This document shows positions 4,726 through 54,021 of a stretch of 64,000 nt of DNA, piece by piece. Position 1 is the stretch's first letter, and the number at the start of each line of letters is the position of its first letter. Source of the DNA: a virus; IMG/VR virus record IMGVR_UViG_3300023440_000001, positions 1-64,000 of that record; one strand, 5' to 3'. Below the pieces are notes generated by a model. That model had not been told where the DNA came from, did no database searches, and saw nothing but the letters and a program-made list of their open reading frames with translations. The position numbers and the translations under genes are program-made.

Positions 4726-4729
4726 CTAC

Positions 4730-7700: not shown

Positions 7701-10700
7701 TCGGTAAACCTGGTGTTCCATTCATATTCATACCAGCTGGTCGGGTCTCCGGGCAGGCCATTTATGTCCATACCACAGAGCATTGCCAGTTCACGAGCTG
7801 CTCGACGGCTGTAGTAAATGCGTCTGTCTTCAATCCATCCCACATAACCATGTTGCACCAGAATGTTCCAGGCCTGATAGGTGATGGCTTCCGTGGGCAG
7901 CTCAAAGTACAAATACTCGTCTGTTTCATCCCGATGGGCAAAAACTGCCATGAATTGGATAAAGACTGTCAGATCCAATCCATAGAAGTTCAGTGGCAAT
8001 CCTTCTTCAATGATACGTACCAGCAGCTTCCGCAGTGGCTCCACCTTATAAATGCCGGAGCTGGGCTGGACATCAAATAGATCCGCCAGTAGTCGGCGCG
8101 CTTCTGGCGCGCATGGCCCGGATAAGGTGAAATGCTGACTGTTCAAACGATCTATGGAAGACAGTAGTAGAGCGATCAACCGCACTATCCTACCGGTAAG
8201 CGGTACGTCGTCATTGACCGTTCCCCGCACCTTTTTCAGATGTAGTACATCGGGCATACTGATCTTTAACAGTGGATAAGTAACCCGCATATCTTCTGTC
8301 AGATCCCGGGCCTTTACCCACTGTTTATCAATCCAGAAGGGATGTTCTTCGGTAACCTTAATCTCCCAGGGCAGACCCCTAATCTTGATGACGTATATCT
8401 CTTCATCTACTTCCCGGATGGCTACTGCCTTTACCGGATAGAAGCGTCCCTTGACGGTACGGATCAGGTCACCTGGCTTAACGGCATCGGCTCGTACCAG
8501 ACTACCGTTTACTTCTACCATTGAGTCAGGTGTCAGACAGTACGGATCGGAGTGTTTAAACTCATCTGGCATCCAGGAAGGCATTTCGTTCCGTATCAGA
8601 CCCACCTTTTCGTAATCCGTTCGGGGACGCGGAAAGAGTCGGCGGAAGCCCTCGTTGATTAGCAACATATCCCCCAGGTTCTCATCCCAGTAGAAGCGAC
8701 GGAAGCTATCCATTTCATCGGCTGAAGCAAACACCGGCTGCTCGCCGGCATAAGGCTCGTTACCGCCCCACATAGCAGCGGAGGTGATGAATCCCATTAA
8801 ACCAGCAGGTTCAATGAATCCCCGATAAACCTGTTCGGCTATCAGCTGACGTGTATCCCATGGAGTGGTAATTTCACCGTGATAGGGAGACATGGTGCCG
8901 GATACGAATTGACCAAACTGCTGACTACCTTCCAGGCCCAATGCCGGAGCCCCGGCATAGATCGGACCATAACCCCACAGCTTTCTCTGATTTTCACTCA
9001 CACCGTCAGCAGTCAATACAGCACGTGCCTCTTCCACATGCATGGGTTTGTTTGAAGCAAACGGATGCAGCAGGTTATACAGCCGACCCACTGTTACACC
9101 CAGCAATGGCCCGACAATGGGCACTTCTGAAAACGGCGTGCTGGGTATAACATAGGGTCGGTCCCGATAGTGTTTCTTTTCCAGATACTGTGGCGCAATA
9201 ATATCACCCAGGCTGAAGTCCAGGAAAGGCAGGTCTTTAAAGATGAACTCTTCTATCTTGGATCCATATAGTGATGGCGACGCTTTGTACTGGGACTTAA
9301 GCCGTACATACCAGTTCGGCACCCAGGCACGGATACGACCACCTTCTATGGGAGTTGTTCCGGTTGTCCAGCCGGCGCCCCTACGATAGGGTACCTCTTC
9401 TTCACCCGAGTATATCTTACGGAGCTCATCATAGGATTTGGTCAGATCAGCAACGAATGGAGCCACCGGCGGTAGTATAGCCAGTGCCGATAATGGACCA
9501 CCTGAGAGCTGAGCCTGGGTATATCGGTTAATGGCCGCCCCTGCCAGCATACCTGGCAGACCACCCATCATAAAGCCCACTGCTGCACCGGGTATAATAC
9601 TGGTGGATTTGGGCATCAGCCCTTCCATGTACTTGGCAAAGTTGGTAATGCCGGCAATATCATAAATGCGGGCTGCCAGTAGTCGTGCGTTAACCGCCTG
9701 ATCGGCAATGGCTACCGTAAGACCTTCATCCAGCGCCGTACCATCGAACATGGGATTGACATCAAAGAAAGTATCCAGGGCATTATAGGCAGTCATCACC
9801 CCACTGAAGAAGAGCGCCCGCTTGGCCATCAGACCGGCAACACCACCCCGCCATTTACCATCTACCTTTTTAGGCAGGAAATGGGAATAACGCGCCCGGT
9901 TGAAGCCCAACCCCATGAAGTCCAGCGCCTGACCAAAGGTATCGTAAACATAGTCCATGGCCAGACTGAACAGCTCACCTTTATCCTTATGCAGTAGCAG
10001 GTATGGATCCGTATCGTATGTCTTTTGAACAATACCATAGATCTGTTCCCGATAGTTATCCGGTGGGCTATATTTAGCCGTCCAGCTTACCTCTTTGGAG
10101 AACGCTTCTAATACTCCGGCGTCGTCAGCCTGCTTCAGTACACCCAGTAACTGGGAAAGCTTCTCATAGTTTTGTTCTACCTCAGCGATCTGACGAATGG
10201 TATCCTGGCTGGTAATATTACGAAAGCGTGCCTGAGTAAAAAGCATCTGAACGAAAGCCTTATCCCGTCTGGTAGCTGTAGAGCCAACCAGATTACCAAC
10301 GGCGTTGATCAGACGGGTTGCCAGTGCACGATCATTTGCCACATCATAGGTGAGTTCCTGAGGAACATTGCTGGCGATGGACGTCAGTCGATAGTTAACC
10401 AGGAAACGCCGGAAACGGTCAGCCAGTGGTTCACCGATCGGATTGTAGAGCTCGTTCCGCAGACCACCCAGTTCCTTGGACTGCAATTCATTAATAGCTC
10501 GGGCAATAGAGCGGAACTCGGGCGTGGCTTCGGCAATCTTAAGACTACCTTTATCGAGTGTTTTGAAGAGCAGTTTTACGGCCTCATAGGCATCTTCGGC
10601 ATTGGCGAGTATGTCAGCATGCTTGCCCTGGATGGCTTCAATGAATTTGATATCCGGATCGCTTTTGGTCAGCTGAAGCGGTTTGAATAACTCCTTGAAC

Positions 10701-12853
10701 ACTTCCGGACGCAAAATAACCTTGGCTTCTTTGTTGATGGTATACAGTGCTGCATCTACATGCTCGAGGTAGGTACTCAGATCGTTAATTAGACCATTGC
10801 GCTGATAGAAATCGAAGTCGTAGCCATACTTGCGAGCAAAACTGCGTTGCCCGAACAGTCGTCGCATATTGTACGGGCCAATTCGTGTCTTCAGATGTTC
10901 CCAGGCACTGGGAGACGCCGTGTCAGCACCAAACAGATCAAGCTGCTCATAAAGATAACGACGTATCTTCCCAATGATACCCTTTGATCTTTTGATCTCC
11001 GGAGGCGTACCAATATCAAGTAACTGGTCGTATTTCTTGGCAAGGATGGAGTAGAGCTTGCTCTGTCCTTCCAGTGGTATGGCTGTTAGACGATGATCGG
11101 TAATGGGAATATAACGGCCAGCATTGCGATCGAGAACAAACAACTGATGGCCTTTGTGTTTGGGACTGTAGACCAGAACACCCACACCCGGCACATCAGC
11201 CCCCTTATACTCAGATCCCATTCCCTTACTGCCACGGAATCGAAAGAGCGGTCCTTTAAAACGGTATTCTTCATTGGTGATTGCAGAGGTGGGAATGATC
11301 TTATGTCCACTCAGAATGGTTACTTTGGGCTGCTGGTGTTCTAGTAGCTGGAATTGAAACAGGCCAAGTGTATCAAAACGTCTGCCAAAGGAAAGCATTC
11401 GCCGCGTCCAGTAAATAGCCCGTCCCAGAACTTCTCGTGGAGATATACCACTCAGATTGACCAGTTTCTTACGGATTGGATCATAGTATATATTCTCACC
11501 ATACAGAAAGTTCAGATGATCCGTCTTGTTACGACCCAGTATTAGCTGAGTCGCTGATCGGCGTATGTGACGTGCTTCCCTCCCGGCAAACCGACGGTTG
11601 TACTCCCTGGCGGTAGCAAGTAGCTGGTCATATATCTGATCGTATAAGTCTTTATTGACTTCCTTAACGTGTCGTAATCGTGCCGGAACCAGCCCTAACA
11701 ATCTGGGCAGAAAGCCCTGCTGCTTTGGTTTTACGGCAACCCGATAGAGATTCTCTGTCAGTTCACTGCCCAGTTTCTGATGTTGTTGGTCTATACTGCT
11801 CAGTACTTGAAATAAAGGAGCTGACTCGTAACCTTCGGTACCCTGGATGAACTGGCGATGAACGGTACTAATGGGCAGGTTACGGCGAATATCCCTGCGT
11901 GCTGCCCGATAACGATCCCGGAAGAGACGGTAGCGAGCAACCAGGGTTTCAACCGGATTCTTGTTCAGTCGGTATTTGGACAGACGTTGATTATCACGGA
12001 TCAGAAACACACCGTACCCGGACTCCCCGCCGGTCTGACGCCAGGCGTATTTATAGGCACTGCCGACACGATGGAGAAATGCTTCCCCACGATCCATGTA
12101 CATAGCAGCCCTTTGCAGTGCCGTCTGGATGAATTCGCCGGTGGGTGAAGCCTTCAGAGCACCTCTGGTTTTCAACTGAAACAGTTCCCGGGCAGCTGGT
12201 GCAAAGTGTATGGCCAGTCGGCCGGGAATATCAAAGGCCATATAAGAAGGCAGCCACTTGGCAAAACGGATGGCGTGTCCGGGCAGGTTCCACCAGGCCG
12301 GTCGTTCATCTTTCTGCCGTTCGCGTGGATCACGATTGAAGATACCAATTGCCTGTTCACCGATATAGAATAGAGGTGCTTCATAGGCCAAAGACTTACC
12401 ATATTCGGCAAAAGCACTCTTCAACAGGTTAACTCTGTCGGGTTGATCCATGCGCCGGAAATCACGGATCATTGCCAGAGTACGGAACCGGCGATCTTTA
12501 TAGTGGGACATGAACTCCTGCGCCGGTCGGGATGCTTCCTCCCAGCGACGGGCAAGCCGGCTGATGGATCCAACATTGGTTTCCTGAAGTAACTGCCAGA
12601 GACCTTTTTCCGGTGCTTTAACAGATGCCTTGCGTAACGTTTGCAGGGCAACGGACTTGATTTCAGAAGACTCGCGCAGTGTCTTCAGGGCAAAAGACTC
12701 CAACCGGCGTAGACCGGCAGTGGCCAGACCATGATAAGCACCCCAGGCAATAAACGATAGCGCTACGCTACCGACTAGCTTCTTCAGTGTATCATGACCC
12801 TGTCCTTCAACACCACCGTGATACTGCTGGATCAGTTCGTCCCTATCTGCCAT
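4730..12853 (-). CDS. Giant polyvalent virion protein (2707 aa) in the tape-measure position, with hydrophobic segments, an intein, a PD-(D/E)XK (Cas4/RecB-like) nuclease and an HExxH domain
   Basis: Follows the chaperone-like genes; Gly-rich hydrophobic stretches; GTRTH..GYVD..PIEIKT..QLNVY nuclease motifs (~7400-7150); HERSH at 5842-5828. Confidence 0.75.
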   Translation of the reverse strand: MADRDELIQQYHGGVEGQGHDTLKKLVGSVALSFIAWGAYHGLATAGLRRLESFALKTLRESSEIKSVALQTLRKASVKAPEKGLWQLLQETNVGSISRLARRWEEASRPAQEFMSHYKDRRFRTLAMIRDFRRMDQPDRVNLLKSAFAEYGKSLAYEAPLFYIGEQAIGIFNRDPRERQKDERPAWWNLPGHAIRFAKWLPSYMAFDIPGRLAIHFAPAARELFQLKTRGALKASPTGEFIQTALQRAAMYMDRGEAFLHRVGSAYKYAWRQTGGESGYGVFLIRDNQRLSKYRLNKNPVETLVARYRLFRDRYRAARRDIRRNLPISTVHRQFIQGTEGYESAPLFQVLSSIDQQHQKLGSELTENLYRVAVKPKQQGFLPRLLGLVPARLRHVKEVNKDLYDQIYDQLLATAREYNRRFAGREARHIRRSATQLILGRNKTDHLNFLYGENIYYDPIRKKLVNLSGISPREVLGRAIYWTRRMLSFGRRFDTLGLFQFQLLEHQQPKVTILSGHKIIPTSAITNEEYRFKGPLFRFRGSKGMGSEYKGADVPGVGVLVYSPKHKGHQLFVLDRNAGRYIPITDHRLTAIPLEGQSKLYSILAKKYDQLLDIGTPPEIKRSKGIIGKIRRYLYEQLDLFGADTASPSAWEHLKTRIGPYNMRRLFGQRSFARKYGYDFDFYQRNGLINDLSTYLEHVDAALYTINKEAKVILRPEVFKELFKPLQLTKSDPDIKFIEAIQGKHADILANAEDAYEAVKLLFKTLDKGSLKIAEATPEFRSIARAINELQSKELGGLRNELYNPIGEPLADRFRRFLVNYRLTSIASNVPQELTYDVANDRALATRLINAVGNLVGSTATRRDKAFVQMLFTQARFRNITSQDTIRQIAEVEQNYEKLSQLLGVLKQADDAGVLEAFSKEVSWTAKYSPPDNYREQIYGIVQKTYDTDPYLLLHKDKGELFSLAMDYVYDTFGQALDFMGLGFNRARYSHFLPKKVDGKWRGGVAGLMAKRALFFSGVMTAYNALDTFFDVNPMFDGTALDEGLTVAIADQAVNARLLAARIYDIAGITNFAKYMEGLMPKSTSIIPGAAVGFMMGGLPGMLAGAAINRYTQAQLSGGPLSALAILPPVAPFVADLTKSYDELRKIYSGEEEVPYRRGAGWTTGTTPIEGGRIRAWVPNWYVRLKSQYKASPSLYGSKIEEFIFKDLPFLDFSLGDIIAPQYLEKKHYRDRPYVIPSTPFSEVPIVGPLLGVTVGRLYNLLHPFASNKPMHVEEARAVLTADGVSENQRKLWGYGPIYAGAPALGLEGSQQFGQFVSGTMSPYHGEITTPWDTRQLIAEQVYRGFIEPAGLMGFITSAAMWGGNEPYAGEQPVFASADEMDSFRRFYWDENLGDMLLINEGFRRLFPRPRTDYEKVGLIRNEMPSWMPDEFKHSDPYCLTPDSMVEVNGSLVRADAVKPGDLIRTVKGRFYPVKAVAIREVDEEIYVIKIRGLPWEIKVTEEHPFWIDKQWVKARDLTEDMRVTYPLLKISMPDVLHLKKVRGTVNDDVPLTGRIVRLIALLLSSIDRLNSQHFTLSGPCAPEARRLLADLFDVQPSSGIYKVEPLRKLLVRIIEEGLPLNFYGLDLTVFIQFMAVFAHRDETDEYLYFELPTEAITYQAWNILVQHGYVGWIEDRRIYYSRRAARELAMLCGMDINGLPGDPTSWYEYEWNTRFTEYEWLRLEIEYIRRAHYRGPVYGYEVDTDDSFCVPGACTHNTKVPFGELLLPGEGYETARNVRLTFPAGPSQLGYSAYEQALRMIGIRDELTEMEEDILDAGTRTHRIIQEMLTRLNKNTKAETLIYDPYHNIKGYVDILIQSKNTRHGYMPIEIKTIGAQGFKRLHWPKSKHITQLNVYLNILNESKGILLYVNRDDPTQIRTFQVRYDPRLYEETMNRLETARQLAAQYLAQGYGNPAQAYSFLDRAKVLINAAPFSQEFRDTWQILQQQKEAGVLGEAEIRELNKLQRQRRAMMWKWEMYPYRFKFSQILSPDTEYQNFSLNENIKAAAEYTLPERIMGSIWEKFTHLRSPLHSKLFGLYSPEEQYERFVLYGREFKNWAKPYQHWIEPYSRGLRSVDDPIQGAISYGIGGWLFGGPVLASITAPLGVAYGIMHGIYRGITGTRYIPDRFEEMSEMSQYFDRVRFYKAQMMYLATRNPEFLKEMQRTTVGWTISAMSERGMASRSRKQHNPAAQGIGKDQGFGSPWRGIIGVSRKALNFIAKGEINAEAIGTFIPILNATYRDRIVKLLNGEVGQIRLLDKERQALRQWIEEFDDSPMILIANNINAKLSRIKQLIRHERSHQYFHTALMELDPPGFYRKTGMTPALEKRVAGFLKQRGYNTKNDYEFVSEMIAHEFEYNRARLLRSSYEDIRASFKRLFPKLPDEELDKLAGSFTDSVRWGDMAIQFNRIKLNRSEDTMQPLMRRLHTAEAQGLGVDRGFGSPWQGVNHNLALVGGQSNENQDPQDTYGQRMGQAIRALPYWDRPFLFPFLSTPPDEQDNILQMVDAQMRMVLNMAWNRRRDISKKELDLTRYFQDHYLPSMMEPVMNPAVNVDDVQMLTAEQAGFDAHDFGLGWMSQEQRIRNSPFNLQAIDINGPSPEPVATDMDSATIKAIIEGALASFGVQNAIIQIRSIPSTSSNSIHLNIDIQRERTNVTRANTIRLFGE
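7580..8539 (-). mobile_element. Intein (320 aa) in the giant virion protein, with an apparently degenerate endonuclease region
   Basis: DPY|CLTPDSMVEV start, block B VTEEHPF, block F VYGYEV, end CTHN|T (+1 Thr). Confidence 0.9.
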
Positions 12854-41506: not shown

Positions 41507-42627
41507 TTACCCTTTCTAATGTTGATAATACTTCGATTGAAATACCGGTTGGCCATGGATGGCTCACGCATGGTATTTTCATGAAGCTGATTACGCTTCT
41601 CCTGAAACTCTTCCGTTTGTGGTATAATGATATCCAGATTAAACTTGGTGGCTTCATGTAGGCTCTGTTGACGCTCTAACATCAATCTTAACGGAATGGC
41701 ATGTGGATTGACGCTATTGTTTTCAGCTGATTCGGTTGATGGAGTATGCAATGCCCAGTGAGTGGCATAGTTGATTACTTCCGTGGCCGCCTGAATACAA
41801 TCGATTGCCTGGTTACCGGACTGGGTAACCTCACCTTCCATTAGACCGCTCAGATCCGGATCGTCAAACTCCTCTCCGCCATCCCATTTGAATACGTTGC
41901 CCTTCTGTACCCATTCAAACATGCGTCTGGCTTTCTTCTCCAGTTTGCGGCGTATCCGCTTTACCACCCGACCGGCAATGGGAACCTTTTCCAGCTTGGT
42001 CTTCTTAATCAGGCCGGCCATAAACTGATAGACAAACCCCAGCAACATTCGCCACAGTATCTTCAGCAGACTGAAACGGGTTACTCGCTGTCGATCCTCT
42101 ATTATGGATTCCAGTGTTCGGGTTTCAGCCGGTAACTGCATGTCCATCAGGTTCAGTTCGGCTACGTCACGGCAGCTCATATCATCCGGAAATCGCACGT
42201 CTGGCACACGGTAACCATCCGGACCGGGCTCGGTAAAGAGCAATTGTGATGGCTCAAACCCATACTGAGCCAGAAAGGCATTGTTCATGATGCGCACCGC
42301 CCGATCGAATACTTCATATGTAATACTGTTTGTATCATCATTTCCCAAACGTCGTACGGCTTCAGCCAGTCGGGGACGTTCTGCAGCGTCTACCGGTATG
42401 GAAAGTGCTTCGAGTTGCCGGTCAATCTCTTCCCGCAATTCCCGGAGTTCCTGATCCGCCTGAAGCGCATCGTCGAGCAGCTGCTGATAGGTCTGCTTTT
42501 GTTGCCGCTCTTCTTCGGTGGGTTCATCCTCCAGGCGTACTTCAATCTTCGGGTCGCCCATTACCCTTGGTCGTTCATACTCAATTTCGGGTCGATAGTC
42601 CAGTATTCCAGTCTTCTTGCGTGCCAT
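41503..42627 (-). CDS. Hypothetical protein (probably late/virion)
   Basis: 374 aa, GAGGTG RBS, preceded by the promoter-like motif at 42687. Confidence 0.6.
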   Translation of the reverse strand: MARKKTGILDYRPEIEYERPRVMGDPKIEVRLEDEPTEEERQQKQTYQQLLDDALQADQELRELREEIDRQLEALSIPVDAAERPRLAEAVRRLGNDDTNSITYEVFDRAVRIMNNAFLAQYGFEPSQLLFTEPGPDGYRVPDVRFPDDMSCRDVAELNLMDMQLPAETRTLESIIEDRQRVTRFSLLKILWRMLLGFVYQFMAGLIKKTKLEKVPIAGRVVKRIRRKLEKKARRMFEWVQKGNVFKWDGGEEFDDPDLSGLMEGEVTQSGNQAIDCIQAATEVINYATHWALHTPSTESAENNSVNPHAIPLRLMLERQQSLHEATKFNLDIIIPQTEEFQEKRNQLHENTMREPSMANRYFNRSIINIRKGK

Positions 42628-42700
42628 TCGTCACCTCATTTTATCAGTGAGCCGGCTCTTAGTAAATGACTCAGAGCGGCTCACTATAGATATGTCACAC

Positions 42701-43285
42701 TTAGTTCGGCAGTGTGTCCTGCTGAGGGACGATTTTGCAGATGATCAGCTCCTGGACAGTACTGGTTTTCAGGACTCTAAAAGATACCAGTGCATCGAAC
42801 TGGCGACCGTTGCGCCCCATGATACGGGCACGGATCTCGCCTTTTCGTGGTACATCGACGGTGGGCAGCCAGTAGAGGATATTCAGGAAGGGAATCTCAT
42901 CCTTGCGGTATCCGGTATATGTGAGAAACCGGCGGTTGGTCTCCATGATATAACCGGATCGGTTTACAAGAATGACCGGGCAATCGAACTCTTCAGCCAT
43001 GGTATGCCAGAGTTCTCTCAGGGTCTCTAATTGTTTGGTGGGAGAAACATCTTCGACGTATTCAGGATTAACCAGCTGGGCCACATCACAGTCCAGTTCC
43101 TTGGCCAGTCGCATGAGCGTATCCAGCGACACATTGGTACGTGTACCGTTTTCGATCTTGGATACATATGTGCGGTGTAATCCGGCACGAATGCTGAGCT
43201 GCGCCTGGCTGATATTCTTCAGGATTCGCAGGTCGCGAATGCGTTGAGCGATATGCTCGGCGGGTACCTTCTTAACAAACGACAT
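42701..43285 (-). CDS. XRE-family HTH plus PAS-domain regulator
   Basis: ISQAQLS..LHRTYVSKIENG HTH; C-terminal PVILVNRSGYIMETNRRFLTYTGY PAS start. Confidence 0.8.
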   Translation of the reverse strand: MSFVKKVPAEHIAQRIRDLRILKNISQAQLSIRAGLHRTYVSKIENGTRTNVSLDTLMRLAKELDCDVAQLVNPEYVEDVSPTKQLETLRELWHTMAEEFDCPVILVNRSGYIMETNRRFLTYTGYRKDEIPFLNILYWLPTVDVPRKGEIRARIMGRNGRQFDALVSFRVLKTSTVQELIICKIVPQQDTLPN

Positions 43286-43440
43286 GTGAATTCCTCCAGT
43301 GAATAGTGTAATACCATTGTGAGATCGTGTAACAAGGGATTGATGCCTTGTTTATTGTAAAGGTGGAGCCAAAAAGTGCTTGCATGTTTCGCCAATATGT
43401 TGTATATTTCAGCCATCATAATAAACAAAATGAACAATAC

Positions 43441-43459
43441 ATTATCCATATTGGATAAT
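43441..43459. promoter_or_regulatory. Palindromic operator candidate ATTATCCA-TAT-TGGATAAT
   Basis: Perfect 8-bp arms in the divergent intergenic region; near-copies at 47555 and 47616. Confidence 0.5.
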
Positions 43460-43490
43460 CAAATATACATAACAGAGGAGGAGATTGCAA

Positions 43491-44060
43491 ATGGTTTTTC
43501 AAATCGATGAGACCAGACAGGCCGTCCTTGACATAGAACAGGAGCTTCAACCCCTTTACGAGAAGTTTGCCCAGAACGAAGAGGAAGAGTCCGACATCCA
43601 GGAGTACGAACAGCAGATCCGGGAGTTCTTCAGCCGCAATGTAGCATTTCTGCGGCAATATCTGGGGTTTGTCACTCGCATGGAAGCGTTCAGCCGAGAT
43701 GAGTTTGCTGAATTACTGGGTGTTTCACCGGCTACGGTTAAATGGTGGGAACTGGCCAAAGGACTTCCCAACTATTCTTCTGTGCGAGCTCTGCTGCGAT
43801 TGACGAATAAGGTATTACAACTGGAACAACCTTTCCATTACGGCGATATCTACTGCCGTAACATTGCTCGTTCGATCATTCAAAAAGTACCCGCTCGCCT
43901 GAATGGCATCAATGCACTCGTTCAAGCGCTGTCGGGTATGCCACAAGAGGAGCGCCGACGGTTTATCACTTCGGCCCTGAATAACATCAGCGAACTAAAA
44001 CGTTTCGTGGAGGAAGAACATGCCAACAGCAACAGAGAAGCACCCAACACTGGTCCTTGA
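43491..44060 (+). CDS. XRE-family HTH regulator
   Basis: SRDEFAELLGVSPATVKWWELAKGLP; ATG at 43491 after AGGAGGAG; paralog of the N-terminus of 44446. Confidence 0.8.
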   Translation: MVFQIDETRQAVLDIEQELQPLYEKFAQNEEEESDIQEYEQQIREFFSRNVAFLRQYLGFVTRMEAFSRDEFAELLGVSPATVKWWELAKGLPNYSSVRALLRLTNKVLQLEQPFHYGDIYCRNIARSIIQKVPARLNGINALVQALSGMPQEERRRFITSALNNISELKRFVEEEHANSNREAPNTGP

Positions 44061-44439
44061 TGTTAAAGGCAAAGTTATTGATTGTGATCCGCAATTTGAA
44101 CACTTCCTGGGCTTTCCCTATATGCGTCTTATAGGGGAGCCGCTGACTGCTATTACACGCTCTATTGAGAACCTATCCGACTTCCTCAGGCAGGTGATAC
44201 AGAGCGGTCCCATCCGTGGCTGGTGGGACATAAAACTGAGTGGAGATCGCCGGATATATGGATTCTATAAGATGGTCTTTGATGCGCAGAAGTACAGATA
44301 TTATGTGTATATCCACGACTTCAAACTTCATATGGATATCAACACCGCTCTATCATCTCTGATTGCCGAGTTTGAAAATGAAGACATCCTGCAACTTCTG
44401 GCACTGGCTGGTCAGCTTATAACCCACAAACAACAATGA
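44020..44439 (+). CDS. Stand-alone PAS-domain protein
   Basis: LVLDVKGKVIDCDPQFEHFLGF..LIGEPL. Confidence 0.6.
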   Translation: MPTATEKHPTLVLDVKGKVIDCDPQFEHFLGFPYMRLIGEPLTAITRSIENLSDFLRQVIQSGPIRGWWDIKLSGDRRIYGFYKMVFDAQKYRYYVYIHDFKLHMDINTALSSLIAEFENEDILQLLALAGQLITHKQQ

Positions 44440-44445
44440 TGTAAT

Positions 44446-45666
44446 ATGACTGATGAGATATTCATACCGGTAAAGGTAGAAGAAAGACTCGCCGAACTGT
44501 ACAACAAAATGGTCAGCGAAGAGGAAACCAGTAGCGACATTGATAAACATGAAGATGACATTAAGATTCTATTCAGCAAGAACCTGCAATTCCTGAGAAT
44601 GTATCTGGGATTCTGGGCGGTCGGGGAACCGTATACCCGGACTGAGTTTGCCAGCATGCTGAACGTATCAGTACCGACACTTAAGAACTGGGAGCTGGGA
44701 TACTCCCTACCGAATCACTACTCCCTGAAGCGTATCATATCGGTCGTCAAGAAGGTTCTAAATGTTGAACTGCGTCCAGAACAGCTCTACTGCAAATCCA
44801 TCTCCCACATCATATCTGCCCTTCAGCTGGGTATGGATGAAGTTTCCTACAAGACCATATCCGAGGGTGTGGAAAAGGTCGGTGCGAATGAAATGTTGAA
44901 CATCATTCTTAACCGTTCCGTCGAGTACCATGACATCTTTCATATCCTGGTAGAACACGCGCCCATCGGCGTCTATATGTTTCAGGATTACCGGCTTATG
45001 TTCGTTAACCCGGCCATGGCAAATGGGCTCGGTTACCAGCCTGAAGAACTTATAGGAAAGTCCATAATGGAGCTTATTCATCCAGATGACACTGCCCTGG
45101 TGAACAGGATGATACAGGAACGGCTCGTCGGGAGAATGGAGTTTGTGGAGTATACCCTGAGATTGCTTTCCAAGGACGGACATATACGTTACTGGCGGGT
45201 AAAGGGATCGGTCACTCTATATAAAGATAAGCCGGCCATCATCGGTACGGCTGTGGACTTTGGACACTTTATAACGTCATCTTCTCTGTTTGAAGGGTGT
45301 ATGAATCGCAATCCACTGAGTTTGCGACCGTTCATTAATGAAGCATCCCAGGCGACGGTTGTCATGCGTTGCGTCGGTACCCGTGCTAACAAATGTGAAG
45401 ACTTTGTGATATCGGTTTTCAATGATAAGGCTGACGCCTTTCTCCGGCAATTCGGAATTGTTCTTCAGCCCGGTATTCGCGTTAGTCAGCTGCTAATCAA
45501 TCATCCGGATGTGGTTCGGGAGTTATGCAATATATACTGTAATGACAAATACCGGGTATACCGTCGATTAAAGCTTAAGGCACCAAATGAGACGATCGTA
45601 AACACACGGTTTCGGGTGATTCGTTTCCCACTAACCGAATATATTGTTGTGCAGTTTGAAATATAG
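44446..45666 (+). CDS. XRE HTH plus PAS (and a second PAS-like domain) regulator
   Basis: HTH TRTEFASMLNVSVPTLKNWELG; PAS FVNPAMANGLGYQPEELIGKSIMELIHPDD..KDG. Confidence 0.85.
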   Translation: MTDEIFIPVKVEERLAELYNKMVSEEETSSDIDKHEDDIKILFSKNLQFLRMYLGFWAVGEPYTRTEFASMLNVSVPTLKNWELGYSLPNHYSLKRIISVVKKVLNVELRPEQLYCKSISHIISALQLGMDEVSYKTISEGVEKVGANEMLNIILNRSVEYHDIFHILVEHAPIGVYMFQDYRLMFVNPAMANGLGYQPEELIGKSIMELIHPDDTALVNRMIQERLVGRMEFVEYTLRLLSKDGHIRYWRVKGSVTLYKDKPAIIGTAVDFGHFITSSSLFEGCMNRNPLSLRPFINEASQATVVMRCVGTRANKCEDFVISVFNDKADAFLRQFGIVLQPGIRVSQLLINHPDVVRELCNIYCNDKYRVYRRLKLKAPNETIVNTRFRVIRFPLTEYIVVQFEI

Positions 45667-45723
45667 TATTGCGTAATTAGGGGCACTTTAGTATATTCTC
45701 CTAAAACCAGGAGGATATACATT

Positions 45724-46590
45724 ATGAAAAAGCGCCCTATAGTTCTGAGTATAAGCAACCAAAAGGGTGGAGTTGGGAAGACCACAACCGTATGCGCACT
45801 GGCGGAGACCTTTGCCCATAAGGGTTTTCGTGTTGGAGTGATCGATACGGATCCCCAATCTAATACTACCAGCATACTGGGTAAACCCCCTTATTCACAG
45901 GCCGAAAACATCATTGCCGTCCTGGATCCGGAGTTTGATCGACCTATCTCTGCCCTGTTTGTAGAGTCTCCGAAGATTAAGAACCTCTATCTCCTACCCT
46001 CTTCCATAAAGGCGGCTGGAATGTGGCCCGGTCTGTATGGACGTCTGAACGAATATATGATTAATATATACAGTTTATTGGCCAGGTACCTTTCGCAAGA
46101 TGCAACAATCAATGAGGACTTTGATGTCATAATAATAGATACACCACCCTCACTGGATCTGCCCATGATTAACGCACTGTCTTCCTCTGACTACGTAATA
46201 ATCCCCGTGCAGTCCGGAGACCCCTTCTCCCTAGACGGGTGGTCCGAGCTTTATCTCACCATTCAGAAGGTAAAGAAGAACACCAACGAGCGACTGGAGA
46301 TCCTGGGTATCCTGATTACCTATCACGATCCCAGATTTAACGTATGCAAATCCAACTACAGCTATATCCATGATCGTTTTCGTAGAGAAGGTATTCGGGT
46401 CTTTAATACCTACATCAGTGCTTCAGTGGAAGTCAAACTGTCTCACGTGACGAGAAAACCCATCACCATCTTTAATAAGAGTCATAAAGTCAGCGAACAG
46501 TACCGCGAGCTGACAGATGAAATCATTCAAATCCTAGGAGGTCAAATTGGCAAGGAAGAAACCAAAGAAGTCGAAGAGGCCAACAGTTGA
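45724..46590 (+). CDS. parA: ParA/Soj partition ATPase
   Basis: NQKGGVGKTT, IDTDPQSN, IIDTPPSL. Confidence 0.93.
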   Translation: MKKRPIVLSISNQKGGVGKTTTVCALAETFAHKGFRVGVIDTDPQSNTTSILGKPPYSQAENIIAVLDPEFDRPISALFVESPKIKNLYLLPSSIKAAGMWPGLYGRLNEYMINIYSLLARYLSQDATINEDFDVIIIDTPPSLDLPMINALSSSDYVIIPVQSGDPFSLDGWSELYLTIQKVKKNTNERLEILGILITYHDPRFNVCKSNYSYIHDRFRREGIRVFNTYISASVEVKLSHVTRKPITIFNKSHKVSEQYRELTDEIIQILGGQIGKEETKEVEEANS

Positions 46591-47443
46591 CGACATCAAT
46601 CAAATGTGGGGTGTTAGTGATGAGATACGCTCCGATGGTGATGTACTGGATGAATTCCCTGGCTTCGTAAAGAATAGTGTACAAAAAGACACGTACCCAC
46701 AGGATACAGGAGACGTACCTGGTACATACGACATACCACGTACGCCAGACGTACCCGATACTACCGACGTATTGCATACAGGAGACGTACCCGATACAAA
46801 AGACGTACTACATACTCCTGATGTATCCAATACACCTGACGTGCCAGGTACATCAGATGTGCCACATACGACTGGTGTGCCGGATACAGATAGTGTACGC
46901 CGACCGTCAGACGTACCCAGAAAGTACGTCAGACGTACCTCCTCACTGGACAAATATCAATGGAGCATCGATGTATATCGTCGCTGCATTCCAGATCAGA
47001 AGTCCAGAATCAAGCGCCTCTTGTTAAGGGGTATAGGTAAGTTCGTACCAAACAAACGATCTATGTTAACCCGTCGGCTATTCTCGACCATGGTTTTCGA
47101 TGAACTGTCTGATTTATTAAAAGGCAACTGGAAGATGAAGCGGGATATACCTTACTACAGGAAGGTGTGGAAAAGCCTACAGCGCGAAGGATATCTATCC
47201 TTAATCGATATGAGATTAGATGGACCACTCCATGAGCGTGGTTCGATATTTAAGGTCAAGTTTCCTTTATGGGTCGATACAAACAAAGACGTGAAGAAAG
47301 TCAGCACCAGACGCCTGATACTGGATTGTATATTGTGTACAGAATACCTAAAAGACGGCGATCTATCGGTCTTGCCTTACTTTGATATGGTTCAAAAAGA
47401 GTTGAAGAAGCGAAAGATAGATACAGAACCATTATGTTCCTAA
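46547..47443 (+). CDS. ParA partner candidate with a hexapeptide repeat tract and basic C-terminal domain
   Basis: Overlaps parA; basic N-terminus; about 13 T-x-D-V-P/L-x repeats. Confidence 0.55.
   Translation: MARKKPKKSKRPTVDDINQMWGVSDEIRSDGDVLDEFPGFVKNSVQKDTYPQDTGDVPGTYDIPRTPDVPDTTDVLHTGDVPDTKDVLHTPDVSNTPDVPGTSDVPHTTGVPDTDSVRRPSDVPRKYVRRTSSLDKYQWSIDVYRRCIPDQKSRIKRLLLRGIGKFVPNKRSMLTRRLFSTMVFDELSDLLKGNWKMKRDIPYYRKVWKSLQREGYLSLIDMRLDGPLHERGSIFKVKFPLWVDTNKDVKKVSTRRLILDCILCTEYLKDGDLSVLPYFDMVQKELKKRKIDTEPLCS
46702..46940 (+). repeat. Degenerate 18-bp tandem repeat (coding)
   Basis: Recurrent gacgtac/gatgtg cores with 18-nt periodicity. Confidence 0.8.
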
Positions 47444-47721
47444 AGGGTCGCTTACTGGTTCTCAAGGGGTCGTTAAGATGTTCCTAAAGGGTCGCTTAAT
47501 TGTACCCAACTGGTCGTCAGCTGACCAACTATTTGCTATTTTGCTTGACTAATTGGTATCCATATTAGATATTAATCGCTCTTTTGTATATAGGCTTATT
47601 GATTATGGCTAAATCATTATCCATATTGGACAAAGTTAAGCGACCCTTTAGGTACGTTCAAACGACCCTTTAGGTACCTGCATGCGATACCCTGGGTACC
47701 ACTAAGCGACCCTTTAGGTAC
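47434..47721. repeat. Iteron-type replication origin: four direct 22-bp-period repeats and four in inverted orientation
   Basis: ATGTTCCTAAAGGGTCGCTTA-like at 47434, 47456, 47478 and 47500; reverse-complement TAAGCGACCCTTTAGGTAC-like at 47637, 47659, 47681 and 47703; AT-rich spacer and flank; adjacent to rep. Confidence 0.8.
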
Positions 47722-47876
47722 GTAGTCAATTGGAAGTATAAGAATCGTAAGTATTATAATAGCATTGGTTATATATATGGACGTTTCTTTTGCACATAGA
47801 ATCGTTATGCTCTAATCAATAAATGAATATATACTACTTAGTTATACTTGATTAATTAGTTAATTGGAATTTCAAT

Positions 47877-49358
47877 ATGAAAGACAACAAACAACTGATC
47901 GCACCGGATATCGTATCCTTTACCCACTATCCATTTGGGTTCTTGAAGACACCCGAGAATCGTCCCCATCATATTATTGATATTCGTGGGCGTATTACCT
48001 ATGATGGAAAGGTAAACGAATATCGCTGGGTTGTTAAGGGAGATAAAGTTGCCGGACTCCCGGTTGGTTCTGAAAATGACCTGGAAGCATTCGTCCATAT
48101 TGAGCAAGCCCGCAGTGCCAGCACCGATAGTTTCGAAGTCAGCAAACAGCACATACTCCACCAACTTGGCTATCCAAATAACGGAAAGTACCATCTCATC
48201 ATTAACAATGCTATTACCAAGTTTCGAAAACTGAACATAACCGCATTCAACTGTCTGATGGATCCTAAACGGGGTAAGTTCTATAAGGCACTGACTTTCC
48301 CATTCTTTGATTCAGTTGGCATTCTGGGCCGTGGAGATGCTGTCAACGAGATCGATATGAGCATTGATGCCGAGCAGGTACTGGAGCAACTGTCTTCCAT
48401 GCGGCACGTTGCCTTTGTCTTTACCCTATCAAAGCCACTTCGAAGGCTGTTGGATTCTTCAAACGCCATCCCGCTGGATTGGGATATCTATGTAAGTCTG
48501 CCCGAGATTAAAAGCCGCATGTTATACCGTACTGTGAATAAGTTGAGTCATTTTAACATTGACTATATTGAACTTCGGGAAATGGGGAAGCTGCTTTCTT
48601 TGGCCTTTTATCGTAACTCTCGTATTCGAGCATCGCTGGAGAAACCCCTGGACGTACTGAAACAGGCTGGTGTCATTCATGACTATCGATTTACCGAAGA
48701 CAATGGTATCCATTTTAAGTTTAACCCCATTCGGACACAGGTTAAATCCAGCGACAGTACCCGTAAGCACCCACTTTATGAATATCTTGTCAACAAAACC
48801 AATGTGAATCCGCGCTCGGCTCGAGACTGCGTGGAGAGCTTATATTGGCGTGAGGAAGACAAAAGATGGGTCATTCGTTTCTATGAATCTCATAAGAAAC
48901 AACGTGGCTGGAATGACGGGATGCTGGTATTACTACTGAAGGGAGACCAGGAAAAGGTAAAGGATGAACTTCTGGAAGCTCGTCAATGGATCGATCAGAT
49001 GAAAGCGCAGACCAAATCAAAGGAAAGTGAACAGGAAGCCCGGGAGTATTCGAACAAACTTGATGAAATGCTGGTCAAAGCAGTTACTGAGCTTACAGAA
49101 GATGAGCTGAAAGCCCTCTACGAGTGGTCTGTTGAGAATCTTGATAACTTCAGTGTCGAACACCTGAGAAAGAATATGGCTGCAGTAAACAGTGTTCGAG
49201 AGTTGCTCGCATCACCCATCTGCAAAGGATACTTCATAAAGGCATTTCAGGAAGTATATCCGGAAAGGTTCAGAGAGATGCAAAACGCAGCCAGGAATGG
49301 CAAACGAAAGGGTAGGGAAGTGGTCAGAAATGCTATACAGCGTTCCTTATTCGAATAA
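47877..49358 (+). CDS. Plasmid-type replication initiator (RepA-like, winged helix)
   Basis: YPF..GLP..D..LGY..GKY..SRMLYR pattern resembling RepA initiators; next to iterons and parA. Confidence 0.7.
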   Translation: MKDNKQLIAPDIVSFTHYPFGFLKTPENRPHHIIDIRGRITYDGKVNEYRWVVKGDKVAGLPVGSENDLEAFVHIEQARSASTDSFEVSKQHILHQLGYPNNGKYHLIINNAITKFRKLNITAFNCLMDPKRGKFYKALTFPFFDSVGILGRGDAVNEIDMSIDAEQVLEQLSSMRHVAFVFTLSKPLRRLLDSSNAIPLDWDIYVSLPEIKSRMLYRTVNKLSHFNIDYIELREMGKLLSLAFYRNSRIRASLEKPLDVLKQAGVIHDYRFTEDNGIHFKFNPIRTQVKSSDSTRKHPLYEYLVNKTNVNPRSARDCVESLYWREEDKRWVIRFYESHKKQRGWNDGMLVLLLKGDQEKVKDELLEARQWIDQMKAQTKSKESEQEAREYSNKLDEMLVKAVTELTEDELKALYEWSVENLDNFSVEHLRKNMAAVNSVRELLASPICKGYFIKAFQEVYPERFREMQNAARNGKRKGREVVRNAIQRSLFE

Positions 49359-49529
49359 GTCTATGTACCGGTCTGCTTGATAGTAACGATCCGCATTGTC
49401 TTCGTTCTTCTCCAGAGCTGTGATCAGTCGAAAGGCAATGTGCCTTTCTTCTTTTCGGAGTATTCCCACCATTTTGTTCTTTACCGATAGCAAGTATGAT
49501 AACTCCTTTATAATATCAGTGTTATTCAT
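49347..49529 (-). CDS. Small hypothetical protein
   Basis: AGGAGG RBS. Confidence 0.5.
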   Translation of the reverse strand: MNNTDIIKELSYLLSVKNKMVGILRKEERHIAFRLITALEKNEDNADRYYQADRYIDLFE

Positions 49530-52861: not shown

Positions 52862-53719
52862 TTATGGTTTAAGTATGACAAATCGCCCACGATGCTGTTG
52901 ATTGTCTGCTCTTACCTGATAGAAGTAAGTCCCCGCCGGTAGACTACGCATATCCAGTTGCCGAATATGTCGCCCGGGGCCCAGCCTGCCGTATTCCCGG
53001 TGAAGAACTTCCCGACCCAACACATCATAAACTGATAATGCCACGTTGACTGCTTCCGGTATGGATAGCAGCACTGTGCCAATGGAAGTTACCGGATTGG
53101 GGTAGATAGCAATCATAAATCCCTTCGGTGGCGCCGGTGGTGTATTATCAACGACTGTCGGCGCTTCGATATTAAAGCGAACATGAGTGCTGTCCCACAA
53201 ACCCATCGTATCTGTTACAATCATCACAAACCCAGCCGGACCATAGTAATCCCCCGGATCCGGCTCCACATATAACACTCCCACCGAATCATATACCCGC
53301 ACATGATCCAAATCCTTATATAATAACACCAGCTGACCAATCGTATTATCCGGATCATACAGTATTGAATCCAGGACGGCTGAATACACCTGACCAAAGG
53401 GCAGGGTGGTTATGCTCAGCTGAACATCCGGAACACCAGCTGACACCGTATCAGAGGGGTCCGACTCATTGCCGGCACTATCCACAGCCGTCAGATAATA
53501 CACATAGAGATTCCCCGGCTGCACATCTTTATCCACCGCATGTGTATCCGGATGGGCAATCGTCTGATAGTGTGAAAACACCATCTCATTAACCGCCCGA
53601 TACAATCGATAGGAGTGCATATCCGGCTCCTTATTAGGACTCCAGTAGATGTTCAGTGAATCGGTCTGCGCATAGCCCAGAGACAGTCCGATCAGCAGCA
53701 TCATAATCCAGCGCATCAT
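52862..53719 (-). CDS. Secreted FN3-domain protein with a T9SS (Por) C-terminal sorting domain
   Basis: Signal peptide MMRWIMMLLIGLSLGYA (AGGAGG RBS), YYLTAVDSAGNES, C-terminal YPNP..VYDVLGREV..LPAGTYFY. Confidence 0.8.
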   Translation of the reverse strand: MMRWIMMLLIGLSLGYAQTDSLNIYWSPNKEPDMHSYRLYRAVNEMVFSHYQTIAHPDTHAVDKDVQPGNLYVYYLTAVDSAGNESDPSDTVSAGVPDVQLSITTLPFGQVYSAVLDSILYDPDNTIGQLVLLYKDLDHVRVYDSVGVLYVEPDPGDYYGPAGFVMIVTDTMGLWDSTHVRFNIEAPTVVDNTPPAPPKGFMIAIYPNPVTSIGTVLLSIPEAVNVALSVYDVLGREVLHREYGRLGPGRHIRQLDMRSLPAGTYFYQVRADNQQHRGRFVILKP

Positions 53720-54021
53720 GTAACCTCCTGTTTTCTCTAGATATGTCACAGATGCGCCTATATAGGGACCCAAATTCACTTCTCTCATATTTCAGACAAC
53801 GCAATGGCAAACGAATCCCGGCTCCCGAAAACGTGCCCCCCGGGTCTTACCATCGAACTTTGCGAACTACTGAATACAGCTGAAGTAGAGGAGTGGTAAG
53901 GACTTACGCCATCGAACTTGTGGAGCAGGTTCGGTAATACTCCCCTGGTATTAACTCTGTAAGGTATTCACACCAACCCACTGGTACTGATATCCCCGGG
54001 TATTGACTCTGTATCCTATTC

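Follow-up and report, generated by a model that had tools for sequence, protein, structure and literature searches.

The divergent regulator cluster

The DNA analyzed here is the first 64 kb of the virus record IMGVR_UViG_3300023440_000001, a myovirus-like record of 136,294 bp with a completeness rating of 72%. We refer to this whole 64-kb stretch as the window. At 42701-45666 it carries four putative regulatory genes: g1 on the minus strand diverges from g2, g3 and g4 on the plus strand, and g4 is followed by the partition gene parA. An initial annotation had placed the four genes in this order upstream of parA and had described their products as HTH-PAS, HTH, PAS and HTH-PAS-PAS proteins (HTH, helix-turn-helix). 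Genes, coordinates and order are confirmed, and the domain description agrees with Pfam, TIGR00229 and structural models. The locus is indeed a divergent regulatory cluster with several PAS-type domains on or beside HTH domains, adjoining a partition gene. The evidence is soft for two of the four PAS calls, and three of the four fall under the curated Pfam sequence thresholds.

The leftward gene, g1 (42701-43285, minus strand), encodes a protein of 194 amino acids (aa) with an XRE-type HTH (residues 9-72), a linker helix (84-99) and a compact PAS-like domain (100-187). The HTH belongs to the XRE/Cro-C1 group (HTH_3, PF01381, 53.5 bits against a cut-off of 23, E 2.5e-14). It is nearest to the controller proteins of restriction-modification (R-M) systems (C.AhdI, 41% identity over 63 aligned columns, TMt 0.90 by Foldseek; PADLOC Control_protein, E 6e-14), and is also near phage repressor PHROGs. 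The C-terminal ~100 residues lie at the edge of the PAS thresholds, with Pfam PAS at 21.5 against 22.6 and TIGR00229 at 23.1 against 22.9; at E <= 0.1 the only PAS-related Pfam families that match g1 are PAS, PAS_9 and PAS_8. An AF2 model, built on a 2-row alignment and with a mean pLDDT of 71.5 (70-83 in the PAS-like part), gives residues 100-187 a PAS-like b-b-a-a-a-b-b-b topology, whose five strands and three short helices are ordered as in PAS domains. Foldseek matches this model best to 3pxp, the XRE plus PAS-like protein MltR (E 1.2e-8), and aligns it to the PAS domains 3olo (TMt 0.76) and 3mfx (0.70). A word-based homolog search returned g1 itself and no other protein, and its HTH and PAS combination was not found in GenBank phages, where 21 records matched and none over 80% of the query.

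The last gene of the cluster, g4 (44446-45666, plus strand), encodes 406 aa comprising an HTH domain that we call the N-domain (4-130), a PAS_3 domain (165-272) and a PAS-like C-terminal domain (285-406). The middle domain is a PAS domain by three profiles (PAS_3, 53.9 bits against 25.6; PAS, 48.1 against 22.6; TIGR00229, 62.8 against 22.9). In an AF2 model built on a 24-row alignment the N-domain is all-helical with pLDDT 89-98, the first PAS domain (PAS1) exceeds 90, and residues 285-406 are poor (30-54). This last region has no Pfam match, and its ESM Atlas model reaches TM 0.66-0.76 to PAS regions. VIA-align places PAS1 at Z 16.3 to 3lyx and 16.2 to 8px4; among solved structures, its nearest relatives in sequence are PAS-B domains of the ARNT type. 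ARNT PAS-B domains are chiefly protein-protein dimerization modules, and the PAS domains of the cluster may serve only dimerization or hetero-dimerization. The word-based search found 58 matches to g4 besides itself, in the PAS region only. Against PLSDB, 52 plasmid records matched; the 12 listed all match only from residue 108 onward, and none of the listed records reaches 80% coverage.

Between these two lie g2 and g3. The 189-aa product of g2 (43491-44060, plus strand) is an HTH-only protein made of an N-domain and a conserved C-terminal helical tail. Its ATG at 43491 sits 8 nt past GGAGGAG, and the alternative TTG at 43485 is less likely. As the initial annotation had noted, g2 is a paralog of the g4 N-terminus: over the first ~125 residues 48 of 118 positions are identical (41%, E 6e-27), and the motifs it quoted are present in both. 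The HTH_3 scores of g2 and g4 (19.0 and 18.3 bits) are below the cut-off of 23. The 139-aa product of g3 (44020-44439, plus strand) is a stand-alone PAS-like protein, whose gene begins within g2 and shares 41 nt with it in the +1 frame. It has its own Shine-Dalgarno (SD) sequence, GGAGGAAG, and its frame is open for just 6 codons 5' of the ATG, which argues that g3 is a separate gene and not half of a freshly broken one. On the same grounds, one frameshift-broken gene or a programmed-frameshift fusion of g2 and g3 was considered and ruled out. Pfam places PAS_4, PAS and PAS_8 on g3 at E 0.007-0.02, all below cut-off. The ESM Atlas gives PAS features at 0.96 and a model (pLDDT 0.74) with TM 0.58-0.63 to PAS regions. 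The word-based search found no homolog of g3 besides itself, and its acceptance as a real gene rests on the strong SD, its length and these PAS-like features. A complex prediction for g2 with g3, run without controls, scored 0.02, a value that is informative in neither direction.

The divergent control region between g1 and g2 (43286-43490, 205 bp) contains two perfect palindromes and candidate promoters that face each other. The leftward candidate for g1, P_L (43462-43490, minus strand), reads TTGCAA-17-TATATT, a 9/12 match to the consensus. The rightward candidate, P_R (43380-43408, plus strand), reads TTGCAT-17-TATATT and was found by eye. The palindrome O1 (43331-43352), AACAAGG-N8-CCTTGTT, is unique in the 136 kb and lies between the rightward -35 and g1. 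The palindrome O2 (43441-43459), ATTATCCA-TAT-TGGATAAT, has a 17-bp core at 43442-43458 and lies just past the -10 of P_L, at its start site; it also falls inside the spacer and -10 of a 9/12 rightward promoter match found by the scan (43431-43459, plus strand).

The O2 core recurs elsewhere in the record, at 47617 (1 mismatch), 124930 (2 mismatches) and 47556 (3 mismatches). The expectation from composition for the whole 136 kb is 0.0145 such sites with <=2 mismatches and 0.22 with <=3. The site at 47556 lies inside the spacer and -10 of a TTGACT-17-GATATT match, and the copies at 47556 and 47617 both occupy promoter-like sites upstream of a candidate replication (rep) gene. The third copy (124930-124946) is 43 nt upstream of the thyX start, which suggests that the same regulator may also touch nucleotide metabolism.

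A collinear relative and a family of HTH-PAS proteins

A metagenome scan gave 15 loci, of which one, L007, holds the whole N-domain. The other 14 were dropped as generic XRE proteins of ~100 aa, and L024 was dropped for a match limited to the PAS part. Gene order in L007 follows that of the window: of 21 window proteins compared, 15 have a counterpart there in the corresponding order, at 24-62% identity. A conserved 374-aa protein of the leftward arm is retained at 44% identity, and ParA, whose gene lies directly after the fused regulator, at 52%. The ortholog of g1 is 24-25% identical (E 6e-18), with conservation extending through the PAS-like part, and g1 is the most diverged gene common to the two. 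Immunity repressors are typically the most diverged among shared genes.

The fused regulator of L007, P0062, has 423 aa and consists of the N-domain (43-45% identity), a middle region and a PAS domain. It is the single gene between the control region and the ParA gene, as L007 has neither g2 nor g3. By this comparison the conserved core of the locus is g1, the control region, a fused HTH-PAS gene and parA, in the same order, and the g2-g3 pair appears as an addition in the phage of the window. L007 stops 0.6 kb past the ParA start, and the rep side is outside the comparison.

The control region of L007 (192 bp) has the same layout. A rightward promoter (9858-9886, plus strand) and a leftward promoter (9958-9929, minus strand) stand face to face, each an 11/12 sigma-70-type match, and the rightward one has the 9-mer TTGTATATT in common with P_R. 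The leftward promoter has its spacer occupied by a perfect 7-N1-7 palindrome (9939-9953), in the manner of O2. Directly next to the rightward -35, in the place equivalent to O1, is a perfect 8-N5-8 palindrome (9833-9853). The two phages thus share a geometry, face-to-face promoters with two different perfect palindromes, whereas the palindrome sequences themselves are unrelated. Such divergence would be as expected for immunity specificity. One argument favors g1 as the protein that would bind the palindromes, because g4, g2 and P0062 hardly differ in the recognition-helix region, the palindromes of the two phages are wholly different, and g1 is the most diverged of the shared proteins.

In L007 a further promoter match (11260-11288, 11/12 with TG) lies between the stop codon of the fused regulator and the start of ParA, whose likely ATG is at 11317, 53 nt downstream of that stop codon. 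A weaker look-alike, TTGCGT-17-TATATT, can be picked out by eye in the 57-nt gap before parA in the window.

The N-domain itself was followed with a g2/g4 profile searched against 1.84 billion representatives. Matches numbered 226 at E <= 1e-3, of which 42 reached <= 1e-10 and 3 reached <= 1e-30. From the 150 listed of the 226, 30 with a single matched stretch were taken, and 8 generic short XRE proteins were set aside. At least 22 relatives carry the whole ~130-aa domain at the N-terminus. Behind it, 15 of the 22 have one to four PAS domains (once a GAF domain); the other seven have no PAS-family match, and five of these are 172-185 aa long. Six residues are invariant in the 24-row alignment (N46, R51, G55, W82, E83 and P89 in g4 numbering), and both g2 and g4 hold all six, which places them in the family. 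The HTH core resembles the HigA-2/MqsA subtype (family profile against the HigA-2 antitoxin HTH, E 3e-4), and some relatives pass the HTH_3 cut-off (P0092, 27.1 bits; P0095, 27.5 bits). The ten clusters looked up are all metagenomic, with 1-4 members each. Two members sit in metagenome-assembled genomes (MAGs) of Calditrichia, one of them on a 772-kb contig with genes for glycoside hydrolases, a sugar kinase, Fur and rubrerythrin around it, a chromosomal and not phage-like setting. The family is present in 3 of 86 genomes of the phylum of these MAGs. On this evidence the N-domain of g2 and g4 defines a rare, unnamed HTH family that is mostly fused to one to four PAS domains; further metagenome or virus members may exist beyond those found.

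A tree of the N-domain was built from 23 of the 24 rows, with P0091 left out as too short. The sequences of g4, P0062, g2 and P0061 group together (support 91/88), and g2 is sister to P0061, a stand-alone protein of 185 aa (UFboot/SH-aLRT 95/98). Since g2 is sister to P0061, the duplication that separated g2 from g4 predates the split between g2 and P0061. The tail of g2 aligns with that of P0061 and with the linkers of fused family members. These relationships bear on the proposal of the initial annotation that g2 and g3 are a split version of the fused gene. The domain order agrees with it, but the similarity of g3 to either PAS domain of g4 is not significant (hhalign probability 53%), and a recent fission does not describe the pair. 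Judged by its sequence, it is an old, intact two-gene arrangement.

Partition genes and genome setting

The product of parA (45724-46590, plus strand) is a partition-type Walker ATPase that starts directly at Walker A, with no N-terminal HTH. It is a ParA by its matches to AAA_31 (E 1e-42), phrog_164 (E 2e-54) and NF041546 ParA_partition. In the position of a ParB follows an open reading frame (ORF) of 298 aa (46547-47443, plus strand) with a TTG start after AGGAGG. Within it an 18/36-nt tandem repeat (46703-46815) codes for PDVPxT-like hexapeptides; because all reading frames are open there, the coding frame across the repeat is uncertain. An iteron- or centromere-like array (47434-47721) comes next, with five 12-nt cores in ~22-bp units arranged as two opposed groups. 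Four cores are exact and one has one mismatch; the 64 kb as a whole has 11 matches at <=2 mismatches, these five included. The O2-like sites 47556-47572 and 47617-47633 are interleaved in this array. The next gene encodes a 493-aa protein (47877-49358, plus strand) that is, by position only, a candidate plasmid-type replication initiator. A PADLOC scan of the locus proteins gave nothing beyond HTH or P-loop parts.

PHROG matches identify tailed-phage genes for sheath, major head, portal and terminase, the structural genes looked for in a phage-plasmid. The regulator locus lies exactly between a structural arm and an arm that holds par/rep and the early and replication genes, a position that would suit a lifestyle switch. 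Leftward from g1 come the 374-aa protein, a ClpP-like protease, an SbcD-like exonuclease, terminase, portal, major head and tail sheath. Two giant ORFs end this arm (1-12853, minus strand), one of 2707 aa and one of >1575 aa that runs off the record. Rightward, after the par region, lie a single-stranded DNA-binding protein, a RecA-like protein, PolA, primase, a RecD2-type helicase, ribonucleotide reductase (RNR) and ThyX. GC content drops from about 0.50 to 0.425-0.46 across 44-50 kb.

The 136-kb record holds neither a tyrosine integrase nor a serine recombinase. It also has no match to Peptidase_S24 (PF00717), in a search whose positive control scored in 10 of 14 genomes. No tRNA genes were found. 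At the DNA level 42600-49400 has no match in GenBank phages or PLSDB plasmids, and queries with the exonuclease, the N-domain alignment and the 374-aa protein alignment found no relative among viral contigs.

A few genes at a distance from the locus were noted. A 308-aa protein (52862-53788, minus strand) has a Por_Secre_tail match (E 3e-10), the C-terminal sorting domain of type IX secretion, which hints that the host belongs to the FCB group. With the Calditrichia members of the regulator family this agrees only loosely, and the phage's strong use of SD sequences speaks against Bacteroidota proper. Beyond the window, the record encodes a Whirly-domain protein (90130-90585; PF08536, E 1.4e-31). 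Whirly proteins are mainly plant organelle factors that bind single-stranded DNA. The 940-aa family A DNA polymerase (record 93952-96774) joins an N-terminal domain of the uracil-DNA-glycosylase superfamily to exonuclease and polymerase domains. A T4-type RNA ligase and PNKP pair and two separate pairs of AAA_5 and VWA/CobT-like genes were found at record positions 75949-77939, 108298-111374 and 117018-120243.

Interpretation and known systems

We put at about even the chance that the locus serves a large, myovirus-like, phage-plasmid-like element with a plasmid-type maintenance module as its transcriptional control hub. Dimeric HTH proteins would bind the O1 and O2 palindromes, with PAS domains supplying the dimer interface, as they do in VqmA, the PAS-containing regulator of phage VP882. 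A protein bound to O2 would shut off the g1 promoter, those ahead of the rep candidate and the site before thyX, and could act as a block to rightward transcripts. The shared O2 would in this way couple the regulators' own expression to the replication and maintenance genes. With g1 acting against g4, and g4 against g1, across the facing promoters, two states would result, quiet maintenance or lytic development. A lysis-lysogeny switch, as the initial annotation put it, is a plausible reading. The HTH without PAS of g2 and the PAS without HTH of g3 would be extra modulators found only in this phage; their most likely target is g4 or g1, with which they would compete for DNA or for PAS partners. 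Alternatively, g2 (DNA-binding part and linker helix) and g3 (PAS and C-terminal helix) might reconstitute a two-piece regulator.

A number of observations weigh against this interpretation. The promoter calls are consensus matches, and the window has 13 of them against a shuffle expectation of 11.4, which is not above chance. Instead of being an operator, O1 may form an RNA hairpin in the leader of g1, and more than one of the HTH proteins is a candidate binder of each palindrome. Since parA has a promoter-like site of its own, it need not be under g4 control. The 298-aa protein has no Pfam or PDB relative and no relation to ParB, and the 493-aa protein has no relative in Pfam, PHROG, NCBIfam, PADLOC or PDB and none among Rep proteins. 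The PAS calls for g3 and for the C-terminal domain of g4 rest on language-model and ESM models. The full lytic-type replication set (the phage's own PolA, primase, RecD2, RNR and ThyX) is unusual among known phage-plasmids. With the record only 72% complete, an integrase or another repressor may sit in the missing part. The sequencing runs that carry the virus are two DNA metagenome runs and no RNA run. Finally, none of the 86 genomes of the only phylum hinted as host, that of the Calditrichia MAGs, holds a prophage or plasmid relative, and the host hint is weak for this reason.

A narrower role is conceivable, though we consider it unlikely: g2-g4 would merely autoregulate par and rep, in the manner of the HTH of type Ia ParA or of small ParB/KorA-type repressors, g1 would be an unrelated regulator of leftward genes, and there would be no bistable decision. 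The absence of an HTH from ParA itself, the fused regulator directly upstream of parA in both the window and L007, the O2-like sites in the par-rep intergenic region and the lower GC content of the module, as if it had been acquired as a block, all fit such a role. It does not account for the fact that both phages have kept g1 together with the fused regulator and the face-to-face promoters that the two genes share. Nor does it explain the near-consensus promoter that parA has to itself in L007, or the O2-like site before thyX, far from the module.

Equally doubtful, in our judgment, is that the element is a strictly lytic or carrier-state large phage, in which the cluster would time early versus late transcription, ParA would position phage DNA and lysogeny would not occur. 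Its replication and nucleotide-metabolism genes are typical of large virulent phages, and the position of the locus exactly between the structural and early arms would suit a timing device. The lack of an integrase in the 136-kb record and of prophage-like relatives in the 86 genomes point the same way, but the missing integrase fits an episomal prophage equally well. ParA with iteron-like repeats is a signature of plasmid maintenance, and divergent repressor-type HTH genes with relative-specific palindromes resemble immunity regions.

The initial annotation went further and proposed that the switch senses small molecules through multiple inputs; in the full form of this reading each PAS domain would bind a ligand of its own. 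There are up to four PAS-type domains in three proteins, and with no input domain of the S24/RecA type some other input would be needed. MltR (3pxp), the nearest solved architecture to g1, holds a fatty acid in its PAS-like domain (PMC3406030). Against this, fold and sequence comparisons gave no evidence of a ligand or cofactor, with no further search for cofactor motifs made. The predicted PAS domain of g1 is truncated and compact, the nearest solved relatives of g4 PAS1 are the dimerization-type ARNT PAS-B domains, and three of the four PAS calls are below curated thresholds. The full proposal is improbable, although a PAS domain may also receive a small-molecule, redox or light signal.

A bolder version of the hub appears to us quite unlikely: a RecA/SOS-independent decision circuit of an episomal, near-giant phage built entirely of PAS modules, in which g1 would oppose g4, and g2 and g3, as a naturally split pair, would be antagonists in the style of SinI/SinR, g2 as a DNA-binding decoy and g3 as a free PAS partner. 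The circuit would read the redox, metabolite or light state of a host bacterium in a microbial mat and be coupled through O2 to replication and partition. That g2 and g3 are decaying, functionless halves of a duplicated g4-type gene, as the single fused gene of L007 and the lack of any homolog found for g3 might suggest, is highly improbable, since both ORFs are intact with strong SDs and no frameshift remnant, g2 retains all six invariant residues of the 24-row alignment, its stand-alone sister P0061 has the same tail, and the g2-g4 split is older than that between g2 and P0061.

The control hub favored here can be set beside several known systems. The relevant literature that we found on PAS-containing phage repressors is limited to the work on VqmA and the MltR structure, and other publications are possible. 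VP882 is a phage-plasmid in which a PAS-containing transcription factor, VqmA(Phage), takes part with Qtip in the lysis decision, and the comparison drawn by the initial annotation holds as an analogy. VqmA has an N-terminal PAS domain, which both binds the ligand and dimerizes the protein, and a C-terminal HTH (PMC8284805). Because this domain order is reversed in the present proteins, whose HTH is N-terminal and of the XRE type, VP882 is an analogy only, and none of the regulators is a VqmA. A tblastn search with g4 found no match in 50,697 phage records at E 1e-3, a collection in which the presence of VP882 is unconfirmed. VqmA activates an antirepressor gene, and no Qtip-like partner was identified at the present locus.

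The solved architecture closest to g1 is that of MltR, one of the MmyB-like proteins, which join an XRE-type N-terminal HTH to a C-terminal PAS-related ligand-binding module (PMC3406030). MltR is the best Foldseek match of the g1 model. The whole-chain superposition is poor, however (TM 0.38/0.27, root-mean-square deviation 12 A), the domain of g1 is much shorter, and MmyB-like proteins are chromosomal pathway regulators of actinomycetes. R-M controller proteins are closest to the HTH of g1 and bind palindromic boxes as dimers. They differ in being HTH-only proteins of ~80 aa beside R-M genes, whereas g1 has a PAS-like domain and no adjoining R-M genes. SinR and SinI of B. subtilis, an XRE HTH regulator with an oligomerization domain and a small domain-only antagonist as its neighbor, may serve by analogy as a model for the action of g3 or g2 on g4 or g1, although their oligomerization domains are unrelated to PAS; their structure 1b0n appears among the Foldseek matches of g1.

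As a whole, the element recalls the phage-plasmids P1 and N15, which have tailed-phage genes, a partition ATPase, repeats beside a replication gene and no integrase, and which place repressor operators at maintenance and replication genes. It differs from them in lacking a recognizable ParB, Rep or protelomerase and in its much larger lytic-type replication apparatus, and there is no sequence relation.

If the interpretation holds, one operator would touch the regulators' own promoter as well as the replication and maintenance module of a phage-plasmid-like element. Independently of it, the analysis brings out an unnamed HTH-PAS(n) family of one-component regulators common to bacteria and this phage lineage. 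The parts are small enough to be testable in a heterologous host, although phage and host are uncultured.

The signals that known lifestyle switches of phages respond to are DNA damage (S24 repressors), peptides (arbitrium) and, for VP882, an autoinducer of the host. In layout the locus is most like the lambdoid CI/Cro and 186/P2-type switches, in which divergent HTH genes flank a short control region with palindromic operators. The face-to-face promoters are found in 186 as well, and lambdoid and 186 operators also vary between relatives. In place of the S24 peptidase of those repressors g1 has a PAS-like C-terminus, so that it is not a cleavable repressor of the CI/LexA type, and the opposing regulator is a 406-aa HTH-PAS-PAS protein instead of a small Cro or Apl. 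Compared with these systems, the present locus would be a different switch design, with repressor-type HTH proteins whose partner domains are all PAS.

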